Assembly: GCA_014728075.1 (NCBI GenBank)
Contig: WJMG01000078.1
Span: 2,668 to 66,667, forward strand
DNA length: 64,000 bases
Direction of reading: 5' to 3'
From: Candidatus Omnitrophota bacterium
GTDB taxonomy: Bacteria > Omnitrophota > Gorgyraeia > Tantalellales > Tantalellaceae
Positions within the stretch are counted from its first letter, which is position 1. Each line of letters begins with the position of its first letter. Position numbers and translations under genes: made by a program. Of this stretch, positions 10,649 to 21,720 are shown in pieces. The notes under the pieces are model-generated. The model was not told the DNA's origin, made no database searches, and saw only the letters and a program-made list of their open reading frames with translations.

Positions 10649-11035
10649 TTATTTTTTTATATTCTTCTCGACCTCGGAAAGAAGAACATCCGGCTTTATG
10701 GGCTTTTCAAGGACGCCTTTCACCGGAAGCCATTCGGAATCCGGCTCGAACCCGAAAGACAGGTTCATGTCCTTCCTGATGCCCGTGGTCATAAGCACCG
10801 GCGTGTCTTTTATCTCCTCGTCGCCGTGGATCTTTCTGGCGATATCGAACCCCTCTGTTTTATTTGCCATCATTACATCCAGAAGGATGAGGTCCGGTTT
10901 TTCCTCTTTAGCCTTTGAAAAGCCTTCCTCTCCGTCCGAAGCGGTTACTATGGAATAGCCCCTGGCCTCGAGAAGAGTCGTCATCGCTTCCCTGAAATCC
11001 GCGTCGTCATCCACTATAAGTATTTTCCCTGGCAT
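10649..11035 (-). CDS. Stand-alone response-regulator receiver (REC/CheY-like) domain protein
   Basis: KILIVDDDADFRE...DLILLDVMM...K motifs. The start was moved to the ATG after RBS AAGGAGG. Confidence 0.8.
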   Translation of the reverse strand: MPGKILIVDDDADFREAMTTLLEARGYSIVTASDGEEGFSKAKEEKPDLILLDVMMANKTEGFDIARKIHGDEEIKDTPVLMTTGIRKDMNLSFGFEPDSEWLPVKGVLEKPIKPDVLLSEVEKNIKK

Positions 11036-12263
11036 TTTTCCTCCTTCTGTTTTTCTGTTCCCGGGCCCTATCACCAAAGGGGGTTATAACCCTTTCCAGT
11101 ATTCCCGACATGTACGATATAATTATACCATAATTAGTGATAGGAACCTTTTGTCTTTTAGCTCTTGCCACCCTGGCCAGCAGTTCTCTGCGGGTAACCA
11201 TACATCCTCCGCAGCTTATGACAAGGGAATACGGAGAAAGGTCCTCCGGAAATTCGCCTCCGGCCGTAACATCGAAAACAAGGTCCCTGCCGGTATACTC
11301 CCTTAACCAGGAAGGTATCTTGCTTCTGCCTATATCCTCCGGTTGAACATGATGTGTGCAGGCCTCAGCGATAAGGACCTCGTCTCCGTCTTGCAGGCGC
11401 TTAACGGCACCTGCGCCCTTTATGAACTCTGCCAGGTCGCCTTTATGCCTGGCGAAAACCACCGAAAAAGAGGTCAACGGGACATTCTCCGGTACTTTAT
11501 CCTTAACCTCCTCGAAGACCTGGGAATCCGTTATGACCAGCGCCGGGGACCTTTCAAGAGAATCGAGAGATTCCGTCAGTCCACTGTCTTTGACGACAAC
11601 CGCTATGCCCCCGGCGTCAAGGACTTCCCTCAACACCTGGACCTGGGGCAGGATCAGCCTGCCCTGCGGCATGGCCCCGTCGATCGGGCATACCAGAACA
11701 ACCGTATCCCCGGCCTTTACTATATCTTTTACCAGCGGGACGGGTGCCCAGTCCCTGGGAGCAAGCCGTATTATCTGTTCTTTCAATTGCTCTATACCTG
11801 CGCCGGTCACCGAACTCACTTTCACGCAAACCCTTCCGTTCTCTTCCCTCAGCCTGTCATCCTCGATGTTTTCTTCAAGATCGCTCTTATTCCATACTAT
11901 CAAAAAAGGCACTCCCTGCTCGCCGAAAGCGGCTATGATTTCCTCTTCGAATTTCCCGGGCCGGGTCCCCGGCTCCATAACTATCAAACCTACATCGGTC
12001 TTTCTAAGGACCCGCCGGGTCTTCAGCACCCTCTCGCGGCCCAGCTCCCCCTCGTCGTCGAGCCCTGCCGTATCTATTAAAACACAGGGTCCTATAGGCA
12101 GGATCTCCATGGCCTTGTAAACAGGATCTGTCGTAGTTCCCGCGCAAGAAGAGACTATTGCCAGGTCCTGTCCCGTAAGCGCGTTTATCAGGCTGGACTT
12201 GCCCGCGTTCCTTCTGCCGAATATCCCTATATGGAGCCTGTTACTTGCCGGTGTTGTATACAT
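11007..12263 (-). CDS. hydF: [FeFe]-hydrogenase maturation GTPase HydF
   Basis: G1 motif GRRNAGKSSLINAL. C-terminal CxH...CxxC (CTHH ... SCGGC) Fe-S motif. Confidence 0.85.
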   Translation of the reverse strand: MYTTPASNRLHIGIFGRRNAGKSSLINALTGQDLAIVSSCAGTTTDPVYKAMEILPIGPCVLIDTAGLDDEGELGRERVLKTRRVLRKTDVGLIVMEPGTRPGKFEEEIIAAFGEQGVPFLIVWNKSDLEENIEDDRLREENGRVCVKVSSVTGAGIEQLKEQIIRLAPRDWAPVPLVKDIVKAGDTVVLVCPIDGAMPQGRLILPQVQVLREVLDAGGIAVVVKDSGLTESLDSLERSPALVITDSQVFEEVKDKVPENVPLTSFSVVFARHKGDLAEFIKGAGAVKRLQDGDEVLIAEACTHHVQPEDIGRSKIPSWLREYTGRDLVFDVTAGGEFPEDLSPYSLVISCGGCMVTRRELLARVARAKRQKVPITNYGIIISYMSGILERVITPFGDRAREQKNRRRKNARENTYSG

Positions 12264-13320
12264 TTTCGTCCCTCCTTCCGGGAAGAAGGGAATCTCCCCG
12301 GGACATGTCCGCGTACCTCCCCATTTCCGGCAGCTTTTCTTTTACTTGTTCGATAAAGTCCTCCGGGCGGGACCCCCTTATTTCCGGCGCCGGATAAATT
12401 TCATATGATCTCGCGTATCGGGGGGGAGTAAAATCGGCCATTATAACATTCGCTCCTCCGGCAAGGGCTCTCATCCGGGGTTCAAGGCTTTCCGCCCCAA
12501 GGGCCGTAGTTGCCGGTATATGCGCTAAAGGAGAAAGTATCCTCATCACGGAGATCGCGCTTAGGGCCTCTCGGCGGGATCCCGCGGGCTCCAGACCCAG
12601 GGCCGTTTCCCCGTGTGGAACAAAAGGCCCCACGGCTACCATATCGAGTGCAAGCTTTCCGAGAAAGACAAGATCCTCCGCCAGACTCTCCTTTGTCTGG
12701 CCCTTAAGCCCTACTATTATACCGCTGCCTGTCTGGAACCCGAGGGCCCGGAGCGTTTCCAGGCATCGTACGCGGTTGTCAAAGGACATACCGGGATGCA
12801 GGGCTTCGTAGATCCTTCTGTTCGAGGTCTCTATTTTAAGAAGGTACCTGTCGGCGCCGGCGTCCCGTAAGACCCGGTATTCTCTCTCTGTTTTTTCGCC
12901 TATAGATACGGTTACCGCGACATCGTATCGATATTTTATTTCCCGGATGACCTCTGCCAGTGACCGGCAATCGTCTTGTCCGTCCTGTCCCGACTGAAGC
13001 ACTATTGTACGCACCCCGGCCCGGAAAACCCTTCCGGCGGCCTCCAGTATCTCTTCAGGCGACATCCTGTATCTTTCGAGCCCGCCCTCGGGACGGTTAA
13101 GCCCGCAATAAGAACAAGCGCCGTCGCAAAAATTCGAAAAGTTTATTATTCCCCTGAACAAGACCCCTTCGCCTATAAACCGCGCCCTGAGAGCATCGGC
13201 TTCTTCTGTTATTCCCGTTTCGGCGGACGGAAGGGACAGGATCTCACGGACCGCCGGCATGTCCTCTCCCCGGAAGGATCTTATCTTTTCCGGAAGACCG
13301 GACCGCCTAAACGAACTCAT
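12241..13320 (-). CDS. hydE: [FeFe]-hydrogenase maturase HydE (radical SAM)
   Basis: CDGACSYC (Cx3Cx2C) and BioB-like architecture, placed between hydG and hydF. The start is ambiguous (13320 or 13260). Confidence 0.8.
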   Translation of the reverse strand: MSSFRRSGLPEKIRSFRGEDMPAVREILSLPSAETGITEEADALRARFIGEGVLFRGIINFSNFCDGACSYCGLNRPEGGLERYRMSPEEILEAAGRVFRAGVRTIVLQSGQDGQDDCRSLAEVIREIKYRYDVAVTVSIGEKTEREYRVLRDAGADRYLLKIETSNRRIYEALHPGMSFDNRVRCLETLRALGFQTGSGIIVGLKGQTKESLAEDLVFLGKLALDMVAVGPFVPHGETALGLEPAGSRREALSAISVMRILSPLAHIPATTALGAESLEPRMRALAGGANVIMADFTPPRYARSYEIYPAPEIRGSRPEDFIEQVKEKLPEMGRYADMSRGDSLLPGRRDENVYNTGK

Positions 13321-14683
13321 CCCTTTTCCCCTTCGCCAGGTCCAAAAGTATTTTTTCCAGCGTTTCTTTCTCTTCGGCTCCCAGACCCGCGGATAGCTTT
13401 TCCACAAGAGCGTACCCTTTTGCCCTCACATCATCCGAAGCGTAGTCGTCAAGGTATTCTTTCAGTGTAATAAGGGCATTTATCCTGCATTTGCCTTTTA
13501 TGGTGCCCGGGCGGGCCATTTCCATGAACGCCTCCCCTGTGCGACGGGACCTGTAGCAGGCGGTACAAAAACTCGGAACGGCGCCTTTTCCGATCAAAGC
13601 GCCGACTACCTGGTCCAGGCTCCGGTGGTCATTGAGCGAGAACTGACCGCATGCCTGGCCCGGTTCAGCGTATCCTCCGGGTGAAGTCCGGGAAGACGCG
13701 CTTATCTGGGACACTCCCAGATCAAAAAGAGCGTCTCTCATCTCCGGAGACTCCCGGGTAGAGAGAATGATCCCCGTGTAAGGAACGGCCAGCCGGAGAA
13801 CGGCTACCAGAAGCATGAACTCCCTGTCGGACATCTCGAAAGGCGCGGCCTCCGAAAGATCAACGCCTTTCGCCGGCTCTACCCTGGGAACAGAGACAGT
13901 ATGCGGCCCTATATTAAATTTTTTCTCCAGATATTCAACATGGGTCAGGAGGCCAAGAGCCTCGAACCGGTGATCATACAATCCGAAAAGGGCCCCTATG
14001 CCCACATCGTCTATCCCCGCCTCGAAAGCCCTGTCTATGGCCGCGAGTCTCTCGTCGGGGTCGCTTTTTGGCCCGCGGGGGTGTACTTTCCTATATGTCC
14101 TCTCATGATATGTTTCCTGGAAAAGCTGGTAAGTGCCTATGCCGGACGCTTTCAGGCGCTTGAACCCTTCCTTTTCCAGAGGGGCACAGTTAACATTTAT
14201 CCGCCTTATCCTGTTCTTACCGTCGGTCTGTGAGTAAATTGTCCCTATACTTTCGGCAAAATAGCCGGCGTCGTCCGGCGATCCGCTTTCCGAAGCGACC
14301 AGAAGTACGCGTTTATGGCCCATTTTCAACAGGCTGCGCGCCTCCGCGGCTATCTCCGGCTGCGCAAGCTTTTTCCTGGGGATCAGTTCATTGCCTTCTT
14401 TGAACGCGCAATAAGAACAGGCGTTAGCGCAGATATTGTTTATGTACAGAGGAGCGAAAAGGACTACCCTGTCACCGTATATCTTTCTTTTTACCTCGGA
14501 AGCGGCCGCGAGGATAGCTTCTGTCTCCCCGGGGCCCTCGGCGGCAAGAAGGACCGCGGCGTCCTCGATAGAAAGCCGGTTCAGGCCGGCACTTTTCTCA
14601 AGGACTTCCATTATTCTTGACCGCCCGGCCTTTCTGCCGGCTTTCAGCGCTTCATGTATTTTTTCTTCATTGATCAGTTTCAT
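13307..14683 (-). CDS. hydG: [FeFe]-hydrogenase maturase HydG (radical SAM tyrosine lyase)
   Basis: CANACSYC and C-terminal CTACYRx22C motifs. ThiH-like. The start was set at MKLINEEKI. Confidence 0.85.
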   Translation of the reverse strand: MKLINEEKIHEALKAGRKAGRSRIMEVLEKSAGLNRLSIEDAAVLLAAEGPGETEAILAAASEVKRKIYGDRVVLFAPLYINNICANACSYCAFKEGNELIPRKKLAQPEIAAEARSLLKMGHKRVLLVASESGSPDDAGYFAESIGTIYSQTDGKNRIRRINVNCAPLEKEGFKRLKASGIGTYQLFQETYHERTYRKVHPRGPKSDPDERLAAIDRAFEAGIDDVGIGALFGLYDHRFEALGLLTHVEYLEKKFNIGPHTVSVPRVEPAKGVDLSEAAPFEMSDREFMLLVAVLRLAVPYTGIILSTRESPEMRDALFDLGVSQISASSRTSPGGYAEPGQACGQFSLNDHRSLDQVVGALIGKGAVPSFCTACYRSRRTGEAFMEMARPGTIKGKCRINALITLKEYLDDYASDDVRAKGYALVEKLSAGLGAEEKETLEKILLDLAKGKRDEFV

Positions 14684-14703
14684 CCTCACCCCGCCAGCGA
14701 TAT

Positions 14704-15195
14704 TCACCCGCCCCTGTTGCGGTACTCTTTTATAAGTTCCGCGGTCCTTTCGGCGTCGAGATCACCGTGTATCTTCTCGTTCACCATTATCACCGGGGCC
14801 AGGCCGCAGGCGCCGAGGCACCTCGCTTCCTGCAAAGTGAACATTTTGTCTTCGGTGGTCTGTCCCACTTCAACCCCCAGCTCCTTTTTAAGGGTTTCCA
14901 GGACCTTTCCGGCTCCCTTTACATAACACGCGGTCCCCATGCATACCGATACGATATATTTCCCCACCGGTTCAAGGTTGAAATAATGGTAAAAGGTAGC
15001 CACTCCCCAGATATGCGCCGTGGGGATGTTCATGTAATGAGCTATTTCGTCCATTACTTCTCTGGGCAAATATCCGTATATCTCCTGGGCTTTGTGCAGA
15101 ATAGCTATTAGCTGGGATTCCGAATGTTCTTTTTCCCGGCACTCGTCCATATATTGTCTGAGCCGCTCCGATCTTTCGTCCTTAACCTTTGTCAT
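14704..15195 (-). CDS. hydC: NuoE-like [2Fe-2S] subunit of a multimeric [FeFe]-hydrogenase (HydC/HndA)
   Basis: CMGTACYV...CLGACGLAP thioredoxin-like 2Fe-2S motif. RBS ACGGAGGG. Confidence 0.85.
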   Translation of the reverse strand: MTKVKDERSERLRQYMDECREKEHSESQLIAILHKAQEIYGYLPREVMDEIAHYMNIPTAHIWGVATFYHYFNLEPVGKYIVSVCMGTACYVKGAGKVLETLKKELGVEVGQTTEDKMFTLQEARCLGACGLAPVIMVNEKIHGDLDAERTAELIKEYRNRGG

Positions 15196-15205
15196 TTTCC
15201 CTCCG

Positions 15206-16978
15206 TTATCTGGATTTTGATAGCTCAGGTATTATTCCTCTCGGCTCTTTCGGCGCATAATGCGTGTGAAGGTACTTATGCGCCGCGGACCCGAGAGGCC
15301 TACCGAGGAACTCCTTGTAAAGCCTCTGAACATCCCTGTTCTCGTGGCTCCGCCTGATGGTCCTGTTCCTGTCAAGCCCGTAAAGGGCTTCCGCCCTTTT
15401 CTTGAGCACATCTTCGTCAAGAGGGATCGAGTTGGACCCGGCGTAAGGCTGACCCCCGCCCCCTATACACCCGCCCGGGCAACCCATTATCTCGATAAAA
15501 TGATACCGGTCGGGATCCTTGCGGACTATGTCGAGAAGTTCCGCGGCGTTACCCAGCCCGTGCGCGACCGCTACTCGTATCTCTTTGCCGTCCATAGTTA
15601 TGCTTCCCTCTTTCACGGACTTGAACCCCCGTATATCCTTGAGCTCTATATCGAGAAGGGTCTCTCCCGTATAAAGCTCGTAAGCGGTGCGTATTGCCGC
15701 TTCCATGACCCCCCCGGTAACACCGAAGATCGCTCCGGCTCCGGAAGAAACTCCGAGAGGGGCGTCGAACTGTTCCGGTTTGATATTATAAAAATCTATA
15801 CCGGAAGATTTTATCATCCACGCGACTTCCCTGGTCGTTACGACAAGGTCGGTGGGGTCCATGCCCTCTACCCGGAGCTCGGGCCTCTGTGCCTCGTATT
15901 TTTTGGCCGTACAGCACATCACGGCAACGGAAAAGATGTTTTCCGGAGACAGGCCCTGTTTATCGGCGAAGTATGTCTTAAGCATTGACCCCATCATCGA
16001 CATGGGGGACTTACAGGTAGAGACATTTTCTATAAGGTCCGGATAGAATTGTTCGAGACACTTCATCCAGGCGCTTGAACAGGAAGTTATCATAGGCAGC
16101 TTGCCTTTGCCCTGCACTCTCTCCAGGAACTCGTTGGCTTCCTCCATTATCGTGAGGTCGGCCGCGAACTGCGTGTCAAAAACATGATCGAACCCCAGAC
16201 GCCTCAACGCCGCGGCCATTTCCCCCTCCATGGCCTTGCCCGGAGGGAACCCGAAAGCCTCTCCTATAGCGGCCCTTACCGAAGGCGCCACCTGCACGAC
16301 CTTCACCAGTTTATCGTCGTTAAGTTTTTCGAACAGTTCCTGCGTATAGTTCTTCTCAACGAACGAAGCGGTAGGGCACACATTTATGCACTGGCCGCAG
16401 GAAGTGCAGACGCTTTCGCTGAAAGGCATATTATACGCCGGCATTACCACCGTATTGAACCCCCTGTGGGCATATCTCAACGCATTGACCTTCTGGACCT
16501 CCTCGCACATGCGCACGCACCTGCCACAAAGGATACATTTGTCCGGGTCCCTGATGACCGCCGGGGAGGAAAGATCTTTTTCGTAATGCTTTTTCTCACC
16601 CTCAAAGTGCCGTTTTCTTATGCCCATGGCGTAAGCAAGCCGCTGAAGTTCGCATATACCGTCCCTTTCGCAGGTATGGCAATCTTCGGGATGGTTGTCC
16701 AGTATCAGCTCCACTATATCCCTCCTGGCCTGTCTCAGGTCACCGGTATTGGTCTTTATGTCCATGCCTTCTTCCACGGGATGCGAACAGGAAGCCACGA
16801 AATTGCGCATGCCCTCTACTTCCACTATACAAACCCGGCACGCCCCTTCTATGGAAAGTTTGGGATGATAGCAAAGACGCGGTATCTTGAACCCCAGGCC
16901 GTCCAGGGCCTGCATTATGGTCTGCCCTTTTTCAACCTTGTAGTCCCTGTTATTGACGGTTATGTTTATCGTTTTCAT
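15206..16978 (-). CDS. hydA: [FeFe]-hydrogenase catalytic subunit HydA (M3 architecture: 2Fe-2S, His-ligated 4Fe-4S, 2x4Fe-4S, H-cluster domain) with non-canonical L1/L2 motifs
   Basis: N-terminal Cys motifs. L1 = PMITSCSSAW, L2 = VMCCTAKKYE, L3 = EIMGCPGGCIGGGGQP. RBS AAGGAGAGG. Confidence 0.9.
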   Translation of the reverse strand: MKTINITVNNRDYKVEKGQTIMQALDGLGFKIPRLCYHPKLSIEGACRVCIVEVEGMRNFVASCSHPVEEGMDIKTNTGDLRQARRDIVELILDNHPEDCHTCERDGICELQRLAYAMGIRKRHFEGEKKHYEKDLSSPAVIRDPDKCILCGRCVRMCEEVQKVNALRYAHRGFNTVVMPAYNMPFSESVCTSCGQCINVCPTASFVEKNYTQELFEKLNDDKLVKVVQVAPSVRAAIGEAFGFPPGKAMEGEMAAALRRLGFDHVFDTQFAADLTIMEEANEFLERVQGKGKLPMITSCSSAWMKCLEQFYPDLIENVSTCKSPMSMMGSMLKTYFADKQGLSPENIFSVAVMCCTAKKYEAQRPELRVEGMDPTDLVVTTREVAWMIKSSGIDFYNIKPEQFDAPLGVSSGAGAIFGVTGGVMEAAIRTAYELYTGETLLDIELKDIRGFKSVKEGSITMDGKEIRVAVAHGLGNAAELLDIVRKDPDRYHFIEIMGCPGGCIGGGGQPYAGSNSIPLDEDVLKKRAEALYGLDRNRTIRRSHENRDVQRLYKEFLGRPLGSAAHKYLHTHYAPKEPRGIIPELSKSR

Positions 16979-16990
16979 CTGATCCTCTCC

Positions 16991-18811
16991 TTAGGCTGTT
17001 TTTACGGCATTGAACTTACAGGCGGCCAGGCACTGCCCGCATTTTATGCATTTTTCTATGTCAATGGCGTGGCGTTCACGGGGGGAACCCGTTACCGCTC
17101 CGGCCGGGCAGACTTTCTTACACGCGGTACAACCGACACAATCCTCGGTAATATAATATTCCAGAAGGTTCCGGCATTCCCCCGAGCGGCACTTTTTTTC
17201 TTTTATGTGCTCCTCATATTCCTCGCGGAAATTCTTTATCGTGCTCAGCACTGGATTCGGCGCCGACTGGCCCAATCCGCACAGTGACGCTTTTTTGATC
17301 GTTTTCCCGAGGCGTTCCAGCTTCTCTATGTCCCCTTCCATTCCGCGCCCTTCGGTTATCCTGGTAAGGATCTCGAGCATTCTTTTGGTGCCTTCCCTGC
17401 ACGGCGTACATTTCCCGCAGGACTCGTTCTGGGTAAATTCAAGAAAAAACCTCGCTATACCGACCATACAGGAATCTTCGTCTATCACGATCATCCCCCC
17501 GGAACCCATTATCGAACCGGCTCTCGCCAGAGACTCGTAATCGATCGGGGTGTCGAGGTACTCTTCGGGAAGACATCCTCCCGAGGGCCCCCCCGTCTGC
17601 ACCGCCTTGAACTTTTTATCTTCCGGTATTCCGCCCCCGATGTCGAAAATGATCTCGCGCAGGGTAGTCCCCATGGGCACTTCGACCAGACCGGTATTAC
17701 GCACTTTGCCCGCGACAGCGAATACCTTGGTCCCTTTGCTTTTCTCCGTCCCCACCGAGCTGAACCAGTCGGCGCCGTCCATTATTATCACGGGTATGTT
17801 CGCCCATGTCTCTACATTGTTTATCAGGGTCGGTTCACCGAAAAGCCCCGAAACCGACGGGAAAGGCGGCCTCGGCCTGGGCATACCCCTTGATCCCTCT
17901 ATCGAATGAATGAGCGCCGTCTCTTCCCCGCAGACGAACGCGCCCGCCCCGAGCTTTATTTCGACATCAAAAGAAAAATCCGATCCGAGGATATTCTCGC
18001 CGATAATGCCGTGTTCCCTGGCGTCCTTGATCGCTTTTTCCAGACGCCTGATGGCCAGCGGATACTCAGCCCTTATGTAAATTATCCCCCTGGAAGCCCC
18101 CACGGCGTACCCGCCTATTATTATGCCTTCCAGGACCGTATGGGGATCTCCTTCAATGGCGCTTCTGTCCATGAAAGCGCCCGGATCGCCTTCGTCCGCG
18201 TTACATATAACATATTTCTTTTCACCTGCGGCCTTTCTGGTGAAATCCCACTTCAACCCCGTGGGGAACCCCGCGCCTCCCCTGCCCCGTAATCCCGATC
18301 TTTTGACTTCCTCCACTACCTCTTCGGGACTCATGCTGGAAAGCACCCTGGCCAGGGCCTCGTATCCTCTCAAGGCCAGGTAGTCATCAATACTTTCAGG
18401 GTCTATTATCCCGCAGTTCCGCAGAGCTATTCTCATCTGTTTTCCGAAAAAACCCACATCTCCGAAAACCCTGAAGAACTTGTTATAAAGGTGGTTTTCC
18501 TCTATTACCAGACGAGCTACGGGCTTGCCTTTGATTATATGTTCTTCAAGTATCTCCTCCAGGTCCGCTTTCCCGACATTCCCGTAGATAGTGTACCCGG
18601 GATTGACTATCATTACAGGCCCCCTGGCGCACATTCCCAGGCACCCGGACAGATTGACCTTTACATCCCTGTAGCTAAGCCCTTTTTCCCGGAATCCGTC
18701 CTTTAAAGCGCTCAAAAGCTCCTTTGACCCCTTGTGCATGCATCCGGGCCCGTCGCAGAGGGTTATGACCCTCGCGGCGACCACATCGTCTCGTTTATAC
18801 TTCTCAGCCAT
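16991..18811 (-). CDS. hydB: NuoF-like flavoprotein subunit (HydB/HndC) with N-terminal 2Fe-2S thioredoxin-like domain, FMN/NADH-binding core and C-terminal 2x[4Fe-4S]
   Basis: GRGGAGFPTGLKW. CGKCTPCREG. CVGCTACKKVCP and CIKCGQCLAAC. Confidence 0.9.
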   Translation of the reverse strand: MAEKYKRDDVVAARVITLCDGPGCMHKGSKELLSALKDGFREKGLSYRDVKVNLSGCLGMCARGPVMIVNPGYTIYGNVGKADLEEILEEHIIKGKPVARLVIEENHLYNKFFRVFGDVGFFGKQMRIALRNCGIIDPESIDDYLALRGYEALARVLSSMSPEEVVEEVKRSGLRGRGGAGFPTGLKWDFTRKAAGEKKYVICNADEGDPGAFMDRSAIEGDPHTVLEGIIIGGYAVGASRGIIYIRAEYPLAIRRLEKAIKDAREHGIIGENILGSDFSFDVEIKLGAGAFVCGEETALIHSIEGSRGMPRPRPPFPSVSGLFGEPTLINNVETWANIPVIIMDGADWFSSVGTEKSKGTKVFAVAGKVRNTGLVEVPMGTTLREIIFDIGGGIPEDKKFKAVQTGGPSGGCLPEEYLDTPIDYESLARAGSIMGSGGMIVIDEDSCMVGIARFFLEFTQNESCGKCTPCREGTKRMLEILTRITEGRGMEGDIEKLERLGKTIKKASLCGLGQSAPNPVLSTIKNFREEYEEHIKEKKCRSGECRNLLEYYITEDCVGCTACKKVCPAGAVTGSPRERHAIDIEKCIKCGQCLAACKFNAVKTA

Positions 18812-18821
18812 TTTTTCCTCT

Positions 18822-19178
18822 CTATTTTATGACCCACTCTTCGATTATTTCTCCCTTTTTCAAATGCCTTTCGATTATCTCCCTGGCCCTTTCGGGGTCC
18901 ACCTTTCCGTATTTCACGGGTATTTTTCCTTCTTCTATTACTTCGACCGTAGGCTCCAGGTTGCACCTTCCGGCACATCCTTTCTGGCTCAGGTAAACAT
19001 CGGTAAGCCCCTTTCTTACGGCTTCCTCGAATATCTGCATTATTTCTTTCGATCCTGCGGCGATCTCGCAGGTAGCCATGCCTACATAGACCCGTTTGGT
19101 CGAAAGATAACCTTTGCCTATTATCCGGTTGACCGCTTCAGCCCTTTTCTTTTTAATGTTGTCTATCGGTTTTACCAC
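18822..19178 (-). CDS. HndB/NuoE-like thioredoxin-fold ferredoxin domain protein (118 aa, only three Cys), GTG start
   Basis: Strong RBS AGGAGG before the GTG. Cys at 37, 68 and 72. Confidence 0.55.
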   Translation of the reverse strand: MVKPIDNIKKKRAEAVNRIIGKGYLSTKRVYVGMATCEIAAGSKEIMQIFEEAVRKGLTDVYLSQKGCAGRCNLEPTVEVIEEGKIPVKYGKVDPERAREIIERHLKKGEIIEEWVIK

Positions 19179-19189
19179 TTTTCCTCCTG

Positions 19190-21013
19190 CTATATTGTGA
19201 AAACAAAAGTATTACCCTTATCTCCCGGAAAAACATCGATGCTTCCTCCGTGGCTCTCTATTATTTCCCTTGTTATGAAAAGCCCCAGGCCTGTGCCTTT
19301 CTCCTTCTTTACCTCCTCTCCCTCCAGCCGTGAAAACCTCTTGAACAGTCTTTTCTTTTCCTGCGGGGTTATGGGCCTTCCGTCGTTATACACGCTGACC
19401 TCCGCCCCGCCTTCCGGACGGCGTACGGCCTTCACCTGTATCTTACCGTTTTTTTTCCCGTATTTTATTGCGTTGCTTATAAGATTGTTGGCCACTACCC
19501 TCATAAGGTCTTCATCGGCTTCAACCTCCATTGCTTCCGGGATATCTATTGCTACTTCTATTTCTTTAGCGCTTATCCTCTTGGCGAAAGTATCCACCGA
19601 AACATCAAAAATATCCTCTTTGATCTTCAGCGGTACCTTGTCCACCTTTATCTCCCCTTTCTCTATCCTGCTGAGGCTGAGGAAATTCTTAACGGTCGAG
19701 TCGAGATGGTCCAGGTTCCTTCCTATGGAATCCAGCGCCTTCTGCTGCTTGAAGTTAACCATGCCCAGAAAACCGTCCCGGACGGAATAAACATTCAGGA
19801 TGGCCGAGGACAGGATGCCCTTGAGCTCATGCGAAACGAAGCCGATCAGGTCAAGATAGCTTTTATTCAGGGCTTCCAGTTTGCGATTGGAAACTTTTAG
19901 CTCTCCGTAGCTCTCGCTGAGTTTCCTGGCCATATTGTTGAAAGAAGCCGATAGCTTGTTCAGTTCGGTTATAGCGGTATGCGGCCTGACCCGGCACTTC
20001 AGGTCGCCCGCGGATATCTTCTCCGTCGCTTTCAACATATCCTTGACCGGCCGCGAGATCACACCCGCCAGTAGAACAGAAAGAAATATGGCCATGACCA
20101 CGGCTCCCGAGACTATGAGCATGTACAACAGCAAAGAGTTCCTTGCTATGTCATGAAAGGGCTTCTCGAGAACACCAACATACAATATACCTATTATTGC
20201 GCCTTCAGGGTTCCGTATGGGCTCGTAGCCGGTAATATACCAGTCGTTCACCACGAAAGCCCTGTCCAGCCAGGTGCGCCCGTTCTTTACAACATTGTCA
20301 TAAACCTCTTCTGAAACCCTTGTCCCTATAGCCCGTTCGCCTTCGGCATTAAGCACATTTGTAGCTACCCTTACATCATCCTGAAAGATCGTGACCGTTC
20401 CCACCGGCCGGTCCTCGTATATCTTTTCTTCGAAAACCAGGTCCCTTATCTTGTCTACCAGTTCGTAATCCCGGTTGATTATCCTGCCCCCGACCATTAC
20501 CTGTTCTATCTTTCCTTCAGTATCCTCTACGGGTACGGCGTATTCTTTGACCATCAGGTCCTTAAGCACTTTCCTGGAACTCGGGCGCGCCTTTGGGGTA
20601 TACAGGATCCTTATCCCCTCCCCGGGCTCGATCCCCGGCTTAGGCCCTGCCCCGGCCAGTATGCGGACGCCTCCCGAAGGTAAGCCTTCAGCGGCTTTAC
20701 GAGCAAGAAGATTGGCGCTTTTCCCCGCTTCTTCGGCCGTAAGGCTGTAAACATAGTGCAGTTCCGCTTTGCTTTTTATCCATACGGGATCGGCGCCGGG
20801 GTCTACGAGGCTGAGCGCCTGCCCTATGTCCTTTATCTCCTCGTTAAAAACACTGGCGGCCGCCTTCAGGTCGTCGGTCACCTGGTCCTGGGCACGGTCG
20901 ATGACATTACTTTTTATCAGGTAAAAGCCCAGTGTCCCGGCCGATACCCCGAGAAAAAGTATCACCGTCATAAAAGACAGCAATATTGTCGTCTTAAGCG
21001 TCCGTGTCCTCAT
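19190..21013 (-). CDS. Sensor histidine kinase with a ~260-aa extracytoplasmic dCache-like domain (TM-dCache-TM-HAMP-HisKA-HATPase_c) embedded in the hydrogenase operon
   Basis: Two TM segments, HAMP (ISAGDLKCRV) and H-box VSHELKG. The periplasmic domain has a Cache-like pattern. Confidence 0.8.
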   Translation of the reverse strand: MRTRTLKTTILLSFMTVILFLGVSAGTLGFYLIKSNVIDRAQDQVTDDLKAAASVFNEEIKDIGQALSLVDPGADPVWIKSKAELHYVYSLTAEEAGKSANLLARKAAEGLPSGGVRILAGAGPKPGIEPGEGIRILYTPKARPSSRKVLKDLMVKEYAVPVEDTEGKIEQVMVGGRIINRDYELVDKIRDLVFEEKIYEDRPVGTVTIFQDDVRVATNVLNAEGERAIGTRVSEEVYDNVVKNGRTWLDRAFVVNDWYITGYEPIRNPEGAIIGILYVGVLEKPFHDIARNSLLLYMLIVSGAVVMAIFLSVLLAGVISRPVKDMLKATEKISAGDLKCRVRPHTAITELNKLSASFNNMARKLSESYGELKVSNRKLEALNKSYLDLIGFVSHELKGILSSAILNVYSVRDGFLGMVNFKQQKALDSIGRNLDHLDSTVKNFLSLSRIEKGEIKVDKVPLKIKEDIFDVSVDTFAKRISAKEIEVAIDIPEAMEVEADEDLMRVVANNLISNAIKYGKKNGKIQVKAVRRPEGGAEVSVYNDGRPITPQEKKRLFKRFSRLEGEEVKKEKGTGLGLFITREIIESHGGSIDVFPGDKGNTFVFTI

Positions 21014-21635
21014 TGATCACGCCTTTTTTGTCCGTGTTTATGAAATAAATTATGTTTTCCAGCTCCAGGCCCAGATTCACATTGTTTATAACGGTATCCT
21101 CCTCGCCCTTGAGATTAATGGGCGCGAAGTTGAGGATCCCTTTTATCCCGGCTGATACCATTATTTCAAGCACCTGCTGAGCAGCTATATCCGGCACGGC
21201 TATTATGCCCACCCTTATTCCGTGCTCTTTTACATACCCCCTCATCTTATCCAGCTGAAGCACGGGTATCTTTTCATCCGCATTGTACTTGGCGGGATCT
21301 ATATCAAATCCCGCTACTATCCTTATGTTCTCCTTTTCAAATCCCCGGTAATTCATCATGGCGGTGCCGATATGTCCGGTCCCGACCACGATAACATCCT
21401 GGACCTTGTCCTTGCCGAGTATCTTATTAAGCTTTTCAACCAGTTCGGCGACCGTATACCCTCCTCTTTTGTTTCCTGATATACCGAACATCGAAAAATC
21501 TTTTCTTACCTGGGCGGGGGTAACCCCCACCGCATCCGCGAGATTATCCGAAAAGACCTTTACAAAGCCCATTTTCTTTAGTCTATATAACGCGTTTTTA
21601 TATTTGGATAACCGTATTATCGTTCTTTTGCTCAT
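20994..21635 (-). CDS. rex: Redox-sensing transcriptional repressor Rex
   Basis: N-terminal winged helix (TIIRLSKYKNALYRL) and Rossmann GTGHIG NADH-binding motif. Confidence 0.85.
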   Translation of the reverse strand: MSKRTIIRLSKYKNALYRLKKMGFVKVFSDNLADAVGVTPAQVRKDFSMFGISGNKRGGYTVAELVEKLNKILGKDKVQDVIVVGTGHIGTAMMNYRGFEKENIRIVAGFDIDPAKYNADEKIPVLQLDKMRGYVKEHGIRVGIIAVPDIAAQQVLEIMVSAGIKGILNFAPINLKGEEDTVINNVNLGLELENIIYFINTDKKGVINEDTDA

Positions 21636-21702: not shown

Positions 21703-21720
21703 TTGTGATTTTTTTCACAT
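21703..21720. promoter_or_regulatory. Rex operator-like inverted repeat TTGTGA-tttttt-TCACAT (TGTGA-N6-TCACA, as in the Streptomyces ROP-type consensus)
   Basis: Direct reading. It lies immediately upstream of the -35 of the rex promoter. Confidence 0.55.

Follow-up and report, generated by a model that had tools for sequence, protein, structure and literature searches.

Can an [FeFe]-hydrogenase dispense with one of the cysteines that hold the [4Fe-4S] cubane of its H-cluster? These four cysteines are usually treated as invariant, and motif filters that look for them serve to decide which genes count as hydrogenases. The question is raised by hydA, a gene on the minus strand (positions 15206..16978) of a 64,000-nucleotide stretch of a Candidatus Omnitrophota bacterium metagenome-assembled genome (MAG) (GCA_014728075.1, contig WJMG01000078.1, positions 2,668 to 66,667 of the forward strand; this whole stretch is referred to below as the window). 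Here the first signature motif of the H-cluster, L1, has Ser where a cubane ligand is expected, and the second, L2, has two consecutive Cys where Pro-Cys is expected. An earlier note, made from the DNA alone, took this as an apparent move of a ligand from L1 to L2 and knew of no described group with this combination. Our analysis confirms the observation and, in part, its interpretation: as far as the searchable literature shows, the gene joins a known Ser ligand to an undescribed Cys-Cys pair in L2 and an undescribed Ser/Ala-Ala in L1. The reading that we favor, with a rough probability of 0.58, is that of a functional HydA from an NADH/ferredoxin-linked HydABC enzyme of the electron-bifurcating type, in which the cubane would most likely be ligated by Ser301, the second shell having co-adapted with no transfer of the ligand.

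Signature motifs of HydA

The open reading frame encodes a 590-amino-acid [FeFe]-hydrogenase catalytic subunit, as judged by its translation and by Pfam, NCBIfam and PDB matches. Its architecture is the full M3 type, with an N-terminal 2Fe-2S domain, a NuoG-type 4Fe-4S domain, a 2x[4Fe-4S] domain, the H-domain and a small-subunit-like C-terminus; the Pfam matches are PF02906 (305.7 bits), PF02256 (80 bits), PF13510 and PF10588. A score of 501.1 bits against TIGR02512, with a cut-off of 405.95, places the protein in group A of the [FeFe]-hydrogenases. It also exceeds the cut-off of 765 for NF040763, 'NADH-dependent [FeFe] hydrogenase, group A6', with 837.8 bits; a literature search for the label 'group A6' found nothing relevant. 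In the PDB, HMMER scores are highest for T. kivui HydA1 (8A6T), at 619 bits, and for A. woodii HydA1 (7Q4V), at 539 bits. No second hydA paralog was found within the window.

Two of the three signature motifs depart from the group A consensus. L1 (16067..16087, minus strand) reads T298-S-C300-S301-S302-A303-W304, where the consensus is TSCCPxW; the relay Cys is kept, the ligand Cys is replaced by Ser, and S302 and A303 stand in place of Pro and Gly. The codons from P295 to W304 (16096..16067) are cct atg ata act tcc tgt tca agc gcc tgg, or PMITSCSSAW. L2 (15893..15919, minus strand) reads M354-C355-C356-T-A-K359-K-Y-E362 in the context VMCCTAKKYE, the codons for M354, C355, C356 and T357 being atg tgc tgt acg (15919..15908). 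Relative to the consensus MPCxxKxxE, the ligand Cys, the Lys and the Glu are kept, and C355 takes the place of the canonical Pro (CpI P354). L3, EIMGCPGGCIGGGGQP (15446..15493, minus strand), agrees with the consensus ExMxCxxGCxxGGGxP and keeps both Cys (C500 and C504). Within it, Gly499 (15482-15484, minus strand) replaces the usual Ala, so that the motif reads EIMGC where E-x-M-A-C is usual.

Two residues outside these motifs also belong to the H-cluster shell. Ser233 (16280..16282, minus strand; CpI S232), lies in an APSVR stretch and is compared among relatives below. The other position is 326, where Met326 (16001-16003, minus strand), invariant in the clade, follows a conserved K-S-P to give SPM; CpI (Q325), T. 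kivui and A. woodii have Gln here (SPQ).

From L1 to L2 the protein aligns without gaps to the T. kivui, A. woodii and T. maritima HydA structures in HMMER, and MAFFT agrees. C300/S301/S302/A303 thereby correspond to CpI C299/C300/P301/G302, M354/C355/C356 to CpI M353/P354/C355, and G499/C500/C504 of L3 to CpI A498/C499/C503. The numbering is that of a sequence which we take to be CpI, and which reproduces the known E279, E282, R286, C299, C300, S319, M353, C355 and K358 (up to E361). By this alignment, the Cys retained in L1 is C300, the proton-relay Cys, and the cubane ligand position holds Ser301. The earlier note had arrived at the same motif readings and codon positions, the same gapless alignment and the same assignment of relay and ligand positions, all of which are borne out here, as are the two extra cysteines that it listed, Cys307 and Cys322, both found in the translation.

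Conservation and phyletic distribution

Three word-index searches yielded 268 non-redundant close homologs, and 245 of these combine S301 with C355. Among the best 120 homologs (76-100% identity), TSCS[SA]AW occurs together with MCC in every one. Proteins with S301 and C355 are spread over about ten phyla. Among GTDB species genomes, the carriers include Omnitrophota, Planctomycetota (Phycisphaerae, Sedimentisphaerales, Anaerohalosphaeraceae, an isolate included), Fibrobacterota, Endomicrobia, Armatimonadota, Margulisbacteria and Vulcanimicrobiota; members of the Auribacterota and Spirochaetales are likewise carriers. The exact protein encoded in the window is deposited in NCBI as an Omnitrophica MAG protein (P0001).

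Across independent genomes, every motif position (300-303 and 355-356) shows synonymous codon variation. In the clade, S301 is encoded by TCC, TCA, TCG or TCT, S302 by AGC, AGT or TCT, and C355 by TGC or TGT. Variation of this kind implies long purifying selection on the amino acids and, together with the recurrence of both changes in 245 homologs, supports the earlier exclusion of a sequencing error. Residues C300, S301 and A303 never vary in an alignment of 49 clade members, and S302 is kept in at least 90% of them. The proton path is invariant in the same 49 proteins (E280, E283, R287, S320 and C300, mapped to E279, E282, R286, S319 and C299 of the presumed CpI sequence), as are K359, M354 and M498. 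In the full set of 245 S301/C355 proteins S301 never varies while residue 302 alternates between Ser and Ala, and C355 is present in 245 of 245 homologs with a residue other than Pro at 302. The variant is the typical HydABC enzyme of the Omnitrophota and of anaerobic Planctomycetota, Margulisbacteria and Auribacterota.

Four states at positions 301 and 355

Relatives in other states were found by searching with two further proteins, L022, a close relative with TSCSPGW, and L027, a deep member with MCC. The S301/C355 state of the query clade (n=245) consists of TSCS[SA]AW, with one TSCSSGW, paired with MCC. An S301/P355 state (n=6; TSCSPGW with MPC) is found in the L022/P0271 group and in P0353/P0354. 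The canonical C301/P355 state (n=16; TSCCPGW with MPC, 73-79% identical to L022) is found in P0340, from the Anaerohalosphaeraceae, and in the P0275 group. Finally, a C301/C355 state (TSCCPTW with MCC) is represented by one cluster, P0398, which comprises four independent records. Identity among the canonical and half-canonical orthologs, and between them and the query clade, is 73-79%, with the exception of P0398 at about 59% (to L027); the only differences concern the state of the ligand-shell positions 233, 301, 302, 303, 355 and 499. In the loci examined, the P0340 and L022 groups have the same operon as the query clade, with rex, a sensor kinase gene, a gene for a 118-amino-acid protein, hydB and hydA. 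Relatives in all four states pass NF040763 (821-930 bits), which is thus blind to the ligand state. The earlier suggestion that a total of five motif Cys is preserved does not amount to a rule, there being four in A. woodii-type enzymes and six in P0398.

Neighbor-joining trees were built after removal of the motif columns and of the columns that switch with them. The superclade that unites these proteins has a bootstrap of 99-100%, and the MCC state appears in every deep sub-lineage, namely the Margulisbacteria-type HydA-HydC fusions, the Auribacterota, L025 and the core. The group formed by TSCSPGW and canonical proteins is nested within the core (bootstrap 88-93 for the group and 100 for the core plus the nested group), and P0353/P0354 are nested in the fusion lineage (84-100). 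Gene order gives independent support for the nesting of the S301/P355 and canonical forms, since only L015 (MCC), L022/L023 (S301/P355) and the canonical P0340 loci have hydG inserted between hydA and hydC, with L081-L083 also in this set. On these sequence comparisons, the most parsimonious history would have MCC ancestral to the superclade and lost at least twice, with the canonical Cys ligand regained in one lineage.

Two other histories were tried and rejected. A single origin of MCC, with the non-MCC proteins as sister, received 0% bootstrap for all-MCC monophyly, both with the full-length protein and with each half, and the hydA-hydG-hydC synteny also stands against it. Recombination as the source of TSCSPGW and MPC in L022/L023 is rejected for any long tract, as sliding-window identity is higher to the MCC consensus than to the A. 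woodii-type or sister consensus from one end of the protein to the other; gene conversion over a very short tract is possible.

Positions 233 (Ser or Ala), 302, 303 and 355 switch together at state transitions. Ser233 is present in every C355-state protein with a readable AP-x-VR stretch, and the residue is mostly Ala in P355 relatives. Every C355 form has Gly499 and each of the 16 canonical close relatives has Ala499, while the S301/P355 forms are mixed. A strict coupling of 302/303 with 355 was also considered; it is perfect in 80 genome loci and is broken by P0398 (Pro302 with Cys355) and by P0395 (Gly303 with Cys355).

Two other architectures were encountered among the relatives. The Margulisbacteria-type HydA proteins (L027, P0122, P0344-P0354, P0398 and P0412; 746-784 amino acids) carry a C-terminal fusion to a HydC-like, thioredoxin-like 2Fe-2S domain (PF01257). 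Outside the window, the H-domain of the 4122-amino-acid protein P0121 is repeated seven times in tandem, and every copy has TSCCA[SG]W and MPCTVKK[TV]E.

A probable Ser-ligated cubane in a remodeled shell

Ser at the ligand position has been described before. In A. woodii HydA1, Ser301 replaces a Cys ligand of the A1 cubane, the Fourier-transform infrared spectrum is normal and the activity is similar to that of the T. kivui enzyme (Katsyv et al. 2023, PMC10021017). The sequence TSCSPGW was noted in Melainabacteria hydrogenases in 2013. When 50%-identity representatives were searched exhaustively, TSCSP with MPC accounted for 17 of the 150 nearest clusters and the canonical motifs for 71, while the MCC type appeared once, the sole such cluster being the query's own. 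Ser301 is a described and widespread natural state, and to this extent the novelty suggested for the motif pair falls away. The other half of that suggestion appears to stand: in the searchable literature we found no paper with an MCC motif or with TSCSS, the sole related mention being the 2013 report of TSCSPGW in Melainabacteria, and within that literature the replacement of the L2 Pro by Cys, together with that of the L1 Pro-Gly by Ser/Ala-Ala, appears undescribed.

A. woodii HydA1, from the electron-bifurcating HydABC(D) complex (7Q4V/7Q4W/8A5E), is among the closest systems known. It has the same domain architecture and HydB type, its homology to HydA is full-length, and in the gapless HMMER/MAFFT alignment it resembles the query in having Ser at the aligned position 301, the relay Cys and a Cys at the position of C322. 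It reads LPMITSCSPGW...IMPCTAKKYE (7Q4V), however, with Pro302, Gly303 and Pro355 against Ser302, Ala303 and Cys355 in the query, and with Ala233 and Ala499 against Ser233 and Gly499. The query thus lacks both the Pro-Gly after Ser and the Pro before the L2 Cys that characterize the A. woodii type. T. kivui HydA1, the best-scoring solved relative (Foldseek fold match, E=1e-51), has matching partner subunits, but like T. maritima HydA (7P5H) it comes from a bifurcating HydABC enzyme with canonical motifs (TSCCPxW/MPC/MAC) and four Cys ligands to the cubane. A. woodii-like loci are of the hydC-hydB-hydA type and differ from the arrangement of the query (rex, sensor kinase, ferredoxin-type gene, hydB, hydA, hydC), and A. 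woodii HydA1 lies outside the well-supported superclade of the query.

In the reading that we favor, Ser301 is most likely a ligand in the query enzyme as well. The cubane would be held by C356, C500, the bridging C504 and Ser301, as reported for the active A. woodii HydA1, and C300 would remain the proton relay to the azadithiolate bridge, with the Glu/Ser/Glu/Arg path intact. Five replacements mark the clade: Ser or Ala for Pro302, Ala for Gly303, Cys for Pro355, Ser for Ala233 and Gly for Ala499. They would represent a co-adapted remodeling of the shell that directly surrounds the two N-terminal ligands of the cubane. Without the two prolines, the backbone would gain two N-H groups close to the cluster. 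Side-chain volume, summed over the three residues, is nearly the same, at about 285.5 cubic angstroms for Pro, Gly and Pro and about 286.1 for Ser, Ala and Cys (standard residue volumes). Such compensated repacking, with a thiol near the cluster, could plausibly retune the potential or the stability of a Ser-ligated [4Fe-4S]H cluster. The bridging Cys of CpI and other [FeFe]-hydrogenases is the last Cys of L3. The A. woodii and T. kivui study names instead the L2 residue Cys354 of T. kivui (Cys356 of A. woodii) as the bridge to the di-iron site, which may be a numbering slip (PMC10021017).

Several lines of evidence argue that Cys355 is not simply a relocated ligand, so that the move from L1 to L2 proposed in the earlier note is not favored. 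Cys355 is dispensable with Ser301, given its loss in two nested lineages that retain S301 and its absence from the active A. woodii enzyme. It is found together with the canonical Cys301 in P0398. Ser301 is invariant in the 245 MCC proteins while position 302 drifts between Ser and Ala. Finally, the sister clade, that of the A. woodii type, retains Ser301 with codons of both Ser families (TCN and AGY).

Other observations weigh against Ser ligation with a remodeled shell. In C. reinhardtii HydA1 (CrHydA1), Ser engineered at the equivalent L1 ligand (C115S in the numbering of that study) left the protein pale, without [2Fe] insertion and inactive (PMC5855289); the equivalence of C115 is given by its 55-residue spacing to the next ligand, which matches that of CpI C300 to C355. 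This result implies that a bare Ser ligand is not generally tolerated and that a thiolate, if within reach of the iron, would be chemically preferred. Invariance of C355 wherever 302 is a residue other than Pro (245/245) exceeds what a packing role alone requires, and the C301/C355 form could be a both-ligands intermediate of ligand migration. The evidence for Ser ligation in A. woodii itself consists of a cryo-electron microscopy map and one sentence (PMC10021017). Our trees, moreover, are neighbor-joining trees only, and long-branch effects on the deepest lineages are a caveat. In the AlphaFold2 model (mean predicted local distance difference test score, pLDDT, 69; mostly 80-95 in the H-domain), pLDDT is only about 66 at residues 301-310. 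The model places a strand at 296-298 followed by coil and a helix at 303-311, and a strand at 348-354 followed by coil at 355-357 and a helix at 358-363; the altered L1 and L2 positions both fall just before helices.

The hydrogenase gene cluster

The cluster lies on one strand, in the order rex, sensor kinase, 118-amino-acid ferredoxin-type protein, hydB, hydA, hydC, hydG, hydE and hydF. The hydB gene (16991..18811, minus strand) encodes, according to Pfam, a NuoF-like flavin mononucleotide/NADH subunit that has a thioredoxin-like 2Fe-2S domain at its N-terminus and a 2x[4Fe-4S] domain at its C-terminus. It matches A. woodii HydB (7Q4V_B) over its full length at 843 bits, with full-length matches to T. 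kivui and T. maritima HydB as well, and its predicted architecture is that of the bifurcating type. On the other side of hydA, hydC (14704..15195, minus strand) encodes a NuoE-like thioredoxin-like 2Fe-2S subunit (PF01257, 184 bits; NF005722 above cut-off). HydB and a NuoE-like HydC next to HydA are the hallmark of electron-bifurcating HydABC enzymes (HydDB group A3), and Omnitrophota enzymes of the HydABC kind have been assigned to group A3 by HydDB (PMC10066038).

The three maturation genes follow, all on the minus strand and all with products above their NCBIfam equivalog cut-offs: hydG (13307..14707; TIGR03955, 486.7 bits, cut-off 312), hydE (12241..13407; TIGR03956, 285.2 bits, cut-off 254.6) and the GTPase gene hydF (11007..12263; TIGR03918, 560.6 bits, cut-off 325.6). 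The listed hydE reading frame, which has a TTG start, overlaps hydG by about 100 nucleotides, and its match to TIGR03956 begins at residue 64; translation probably starts further into the listed frame. In the locus of the canonical relative, an additional stand-alone response regulator gene is situated between hydE and hydF.

Directly upstream of hydB is the gene for the 118-amino-acid protein (18822..19178, minus strand), which fold matches and synteny identify as a thioredoxin-like 2Fe-2S ferredoxin-type protein. The fold matches are to Aquifex Fd4 (1F37, E=1e-8) and to the N-terminus of NfnB (E=8e-16). It has three Cys only (C37, C68 and C72), with none at the first ligand position. A counterpart with 34-86% identity is directly upstream of hydB in every MCC-state locus that reaches that far, and the canonical relative has a 118-amino-acid open reading frame without a Pfam match in the same slot. 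Next are a Cache-HAMP-HisKA-HATPase sensor kinase gene (19190..21013, minus strand; Pfam), kept in the cluster across phyla, and, at the head of the cluster, a gene for a rex-type redox-sensing repressor (20994..21635, minus strand; PF06971 and PF02629), kept in related loci. The order from rex through the kinase, the ferredoxin-type gene, hydB and hydA to hydC is retained throughout the clade. About 70 nucleotides upstream of the rex start, in the gap before the cluster, is a Rex-box-like palindrome, TTGTGATTTTTTTCACAT (21703..21720), with two mismatches to the consensus; such sites are no more numerous in the window than expected by chance. This putative site suggests an NADH/NAD+-responsive autoregulation of the hydrogenase operon, its position being only suggestive.

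The operon that the earlier note had outlined, with HydB, HydC and the three maturases, is therefore present. A complete operon of maturation and HydABC genes and purifying selection agree with its view that the enzyme is functional and no relic. As far as the genes allow a judgment, all the evidence indicates a HydABC enzyme that is matured and catalytically competent, neither a sensor nor a relic.

Alternative explanations

A serious but rather unlikely alternative is that the fourth cubane ligand has indeed migrated. Cys355 would then supply the fourth thiolate, with both Cys355 and Cys356 binding [4Fe-4S]H together with C500 and C504; Ser301 would become a second-sphere hydrogen-bond donor, and the loss of Pro302 and Pro355 would supply the necessary backbone freedom. 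Cubane ligation by consecutive Cys is established chemistry. Cluster N2 of respiratory complex I (Nqo6/NuoB) is ligated by two such residues, Cys45 and Cys46 in T. thermophilus Nqo6, and is to our knowledge the one well-known case in which tandem Cys ligate a cubane. C355-C356 is likewise a Cys-Cys dipeptide at a [4Fe-4S] site, although the protein and the fold are unrelated. The invariance of C355 in 245 of 245 proteins with a residue other than Pro at 302 is what this arrangement would lead one to expect, as is the joint disappearance of both flanking prolines when C355 appears. The intolerance of CrHydA1 for an engineered Ser at the L1 ligand would make a replacement thiolate advantageous; natural Ser301 enzymes must compensate, and a thiol next to Cys356 is an obvious candidate. 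The TSCCPTW and MCC of P0398 would fit a surviving intermediate with both ligands, and the AlphaFold2 model puts residues 355-357 in coil, after the strand 348-354 and outside regular strand.

Against ligand migration, S301 never varies, even though under this reading it has ceased to be a ligand, and C355 was lost at least twice with S301 kept, which leaves the same state as in the active A. woodii enzyme. P0398 has C355 with Pro302 and an intact Cys301, so that C355 occurs independently of the L1 changes. Moreover, in the canonical fold the residue before the L2 Cys follows the 2Fe-facing Met353 and, by strand alternation, would be expected to point away from the cluster.

An improbable alternative gives Cys355 a redox or protective function, such as partnering Cys300 in a reversible, inactive and O2-tolerant state. 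The idea is purely analogical. In CbA5H the TSC loop moves and the proton-relay Cys caps the distal Fe, and a more flexible L1, through the change of Pro302 to Ser, might permit a similar movement here; both altered L1 positions directly follow the TSC loop, and the dip in pLDDT at residues 301-310 is in keeping with such flexibility. A G302S variant of CpI has been crystallized (PDB 7QHF). This CpI position, the counterpart of A303 in the query, has reportedly figured in the work on O2 tolerance of CbA5H, a link that a literature search for G302S did not confirm. Nevertheless, CbA5H itself has canonical TSCCP and MPC motifs, and the hosts of the query clade are, by their record titles, mostly strict anaerobes of sediments and digesters.

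Very improbable is a non-catalytic, sensory or degenerate homolog, HydS-like or Narf-like, with a decayed H-cluster site. Two of the three signature motifs are off consensus and the cluster itself encodes a sensor kinase and Rex, as a sensory role might suggest. However, the proton-relay Cys and the whole Glu/Ser/Glu/Arg path are invariant, Pfam finds no PAS domain, the HydA architecture is the full M3 type, hydA lies between hydB and hydC with hydGEF adjoining, fully canonical orthologs fill the same operon slot, and the A. woodii enzyme, which shares this Ser, is highly active. Known departures from the group A motifs are also of another kind: group B [FeFe]-hydrogenases have an extra Cys in L1 (TSCCCP), and in the sensory groups C and D the proton-relay Cys is replaced. 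The query clade differs from all of these, with its extra Cys in L2, the relay Cys C300 kept, the ligand Cys replaced and HydB and HydC partners adjoining. An assembly or sequencing artefact is refuted, as is a recent deleterious mutation confined to a single MAG; only the MAG origin of the window speaks for either. The same residues recur, with synonymous codon diversity, in 245 non-redundant proteins drawn from assemblies at NCBI, JGI, ENA and Logan, and the state is present in 27 GTDB species genomes (28 MCC-state sequences counting the window).

Implications

These results bear on how hydrogenases are recognized in genomes. At least one survey discarded sequences without canonical L1-L3 motifs (PMC6085437). 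Strict motif screens of this kind would miss the Ser/Cys-Cys clade, and filters that demand canonical motifs discard real hydrogenases. If ligand migration were true after all, a metal ligand would have been relocated within a highly conserved active site, a change later reversed twice. In either case, the superclade offers a natural double-mutant cycle, in which same-operon orthologs, with identities of 57-80%, have Ser/Cys, Ser/Pro, Cys/Pro and Cys/Cys as their residues 301 and 355. This four-state series makes it testable how a Ser-ligated H-cluster stays stable and active despite the failure of C115S in the algal enzyme, and it allows tests of how the first and second shells set the potential of the cubane in bifurcating hydrogenases.

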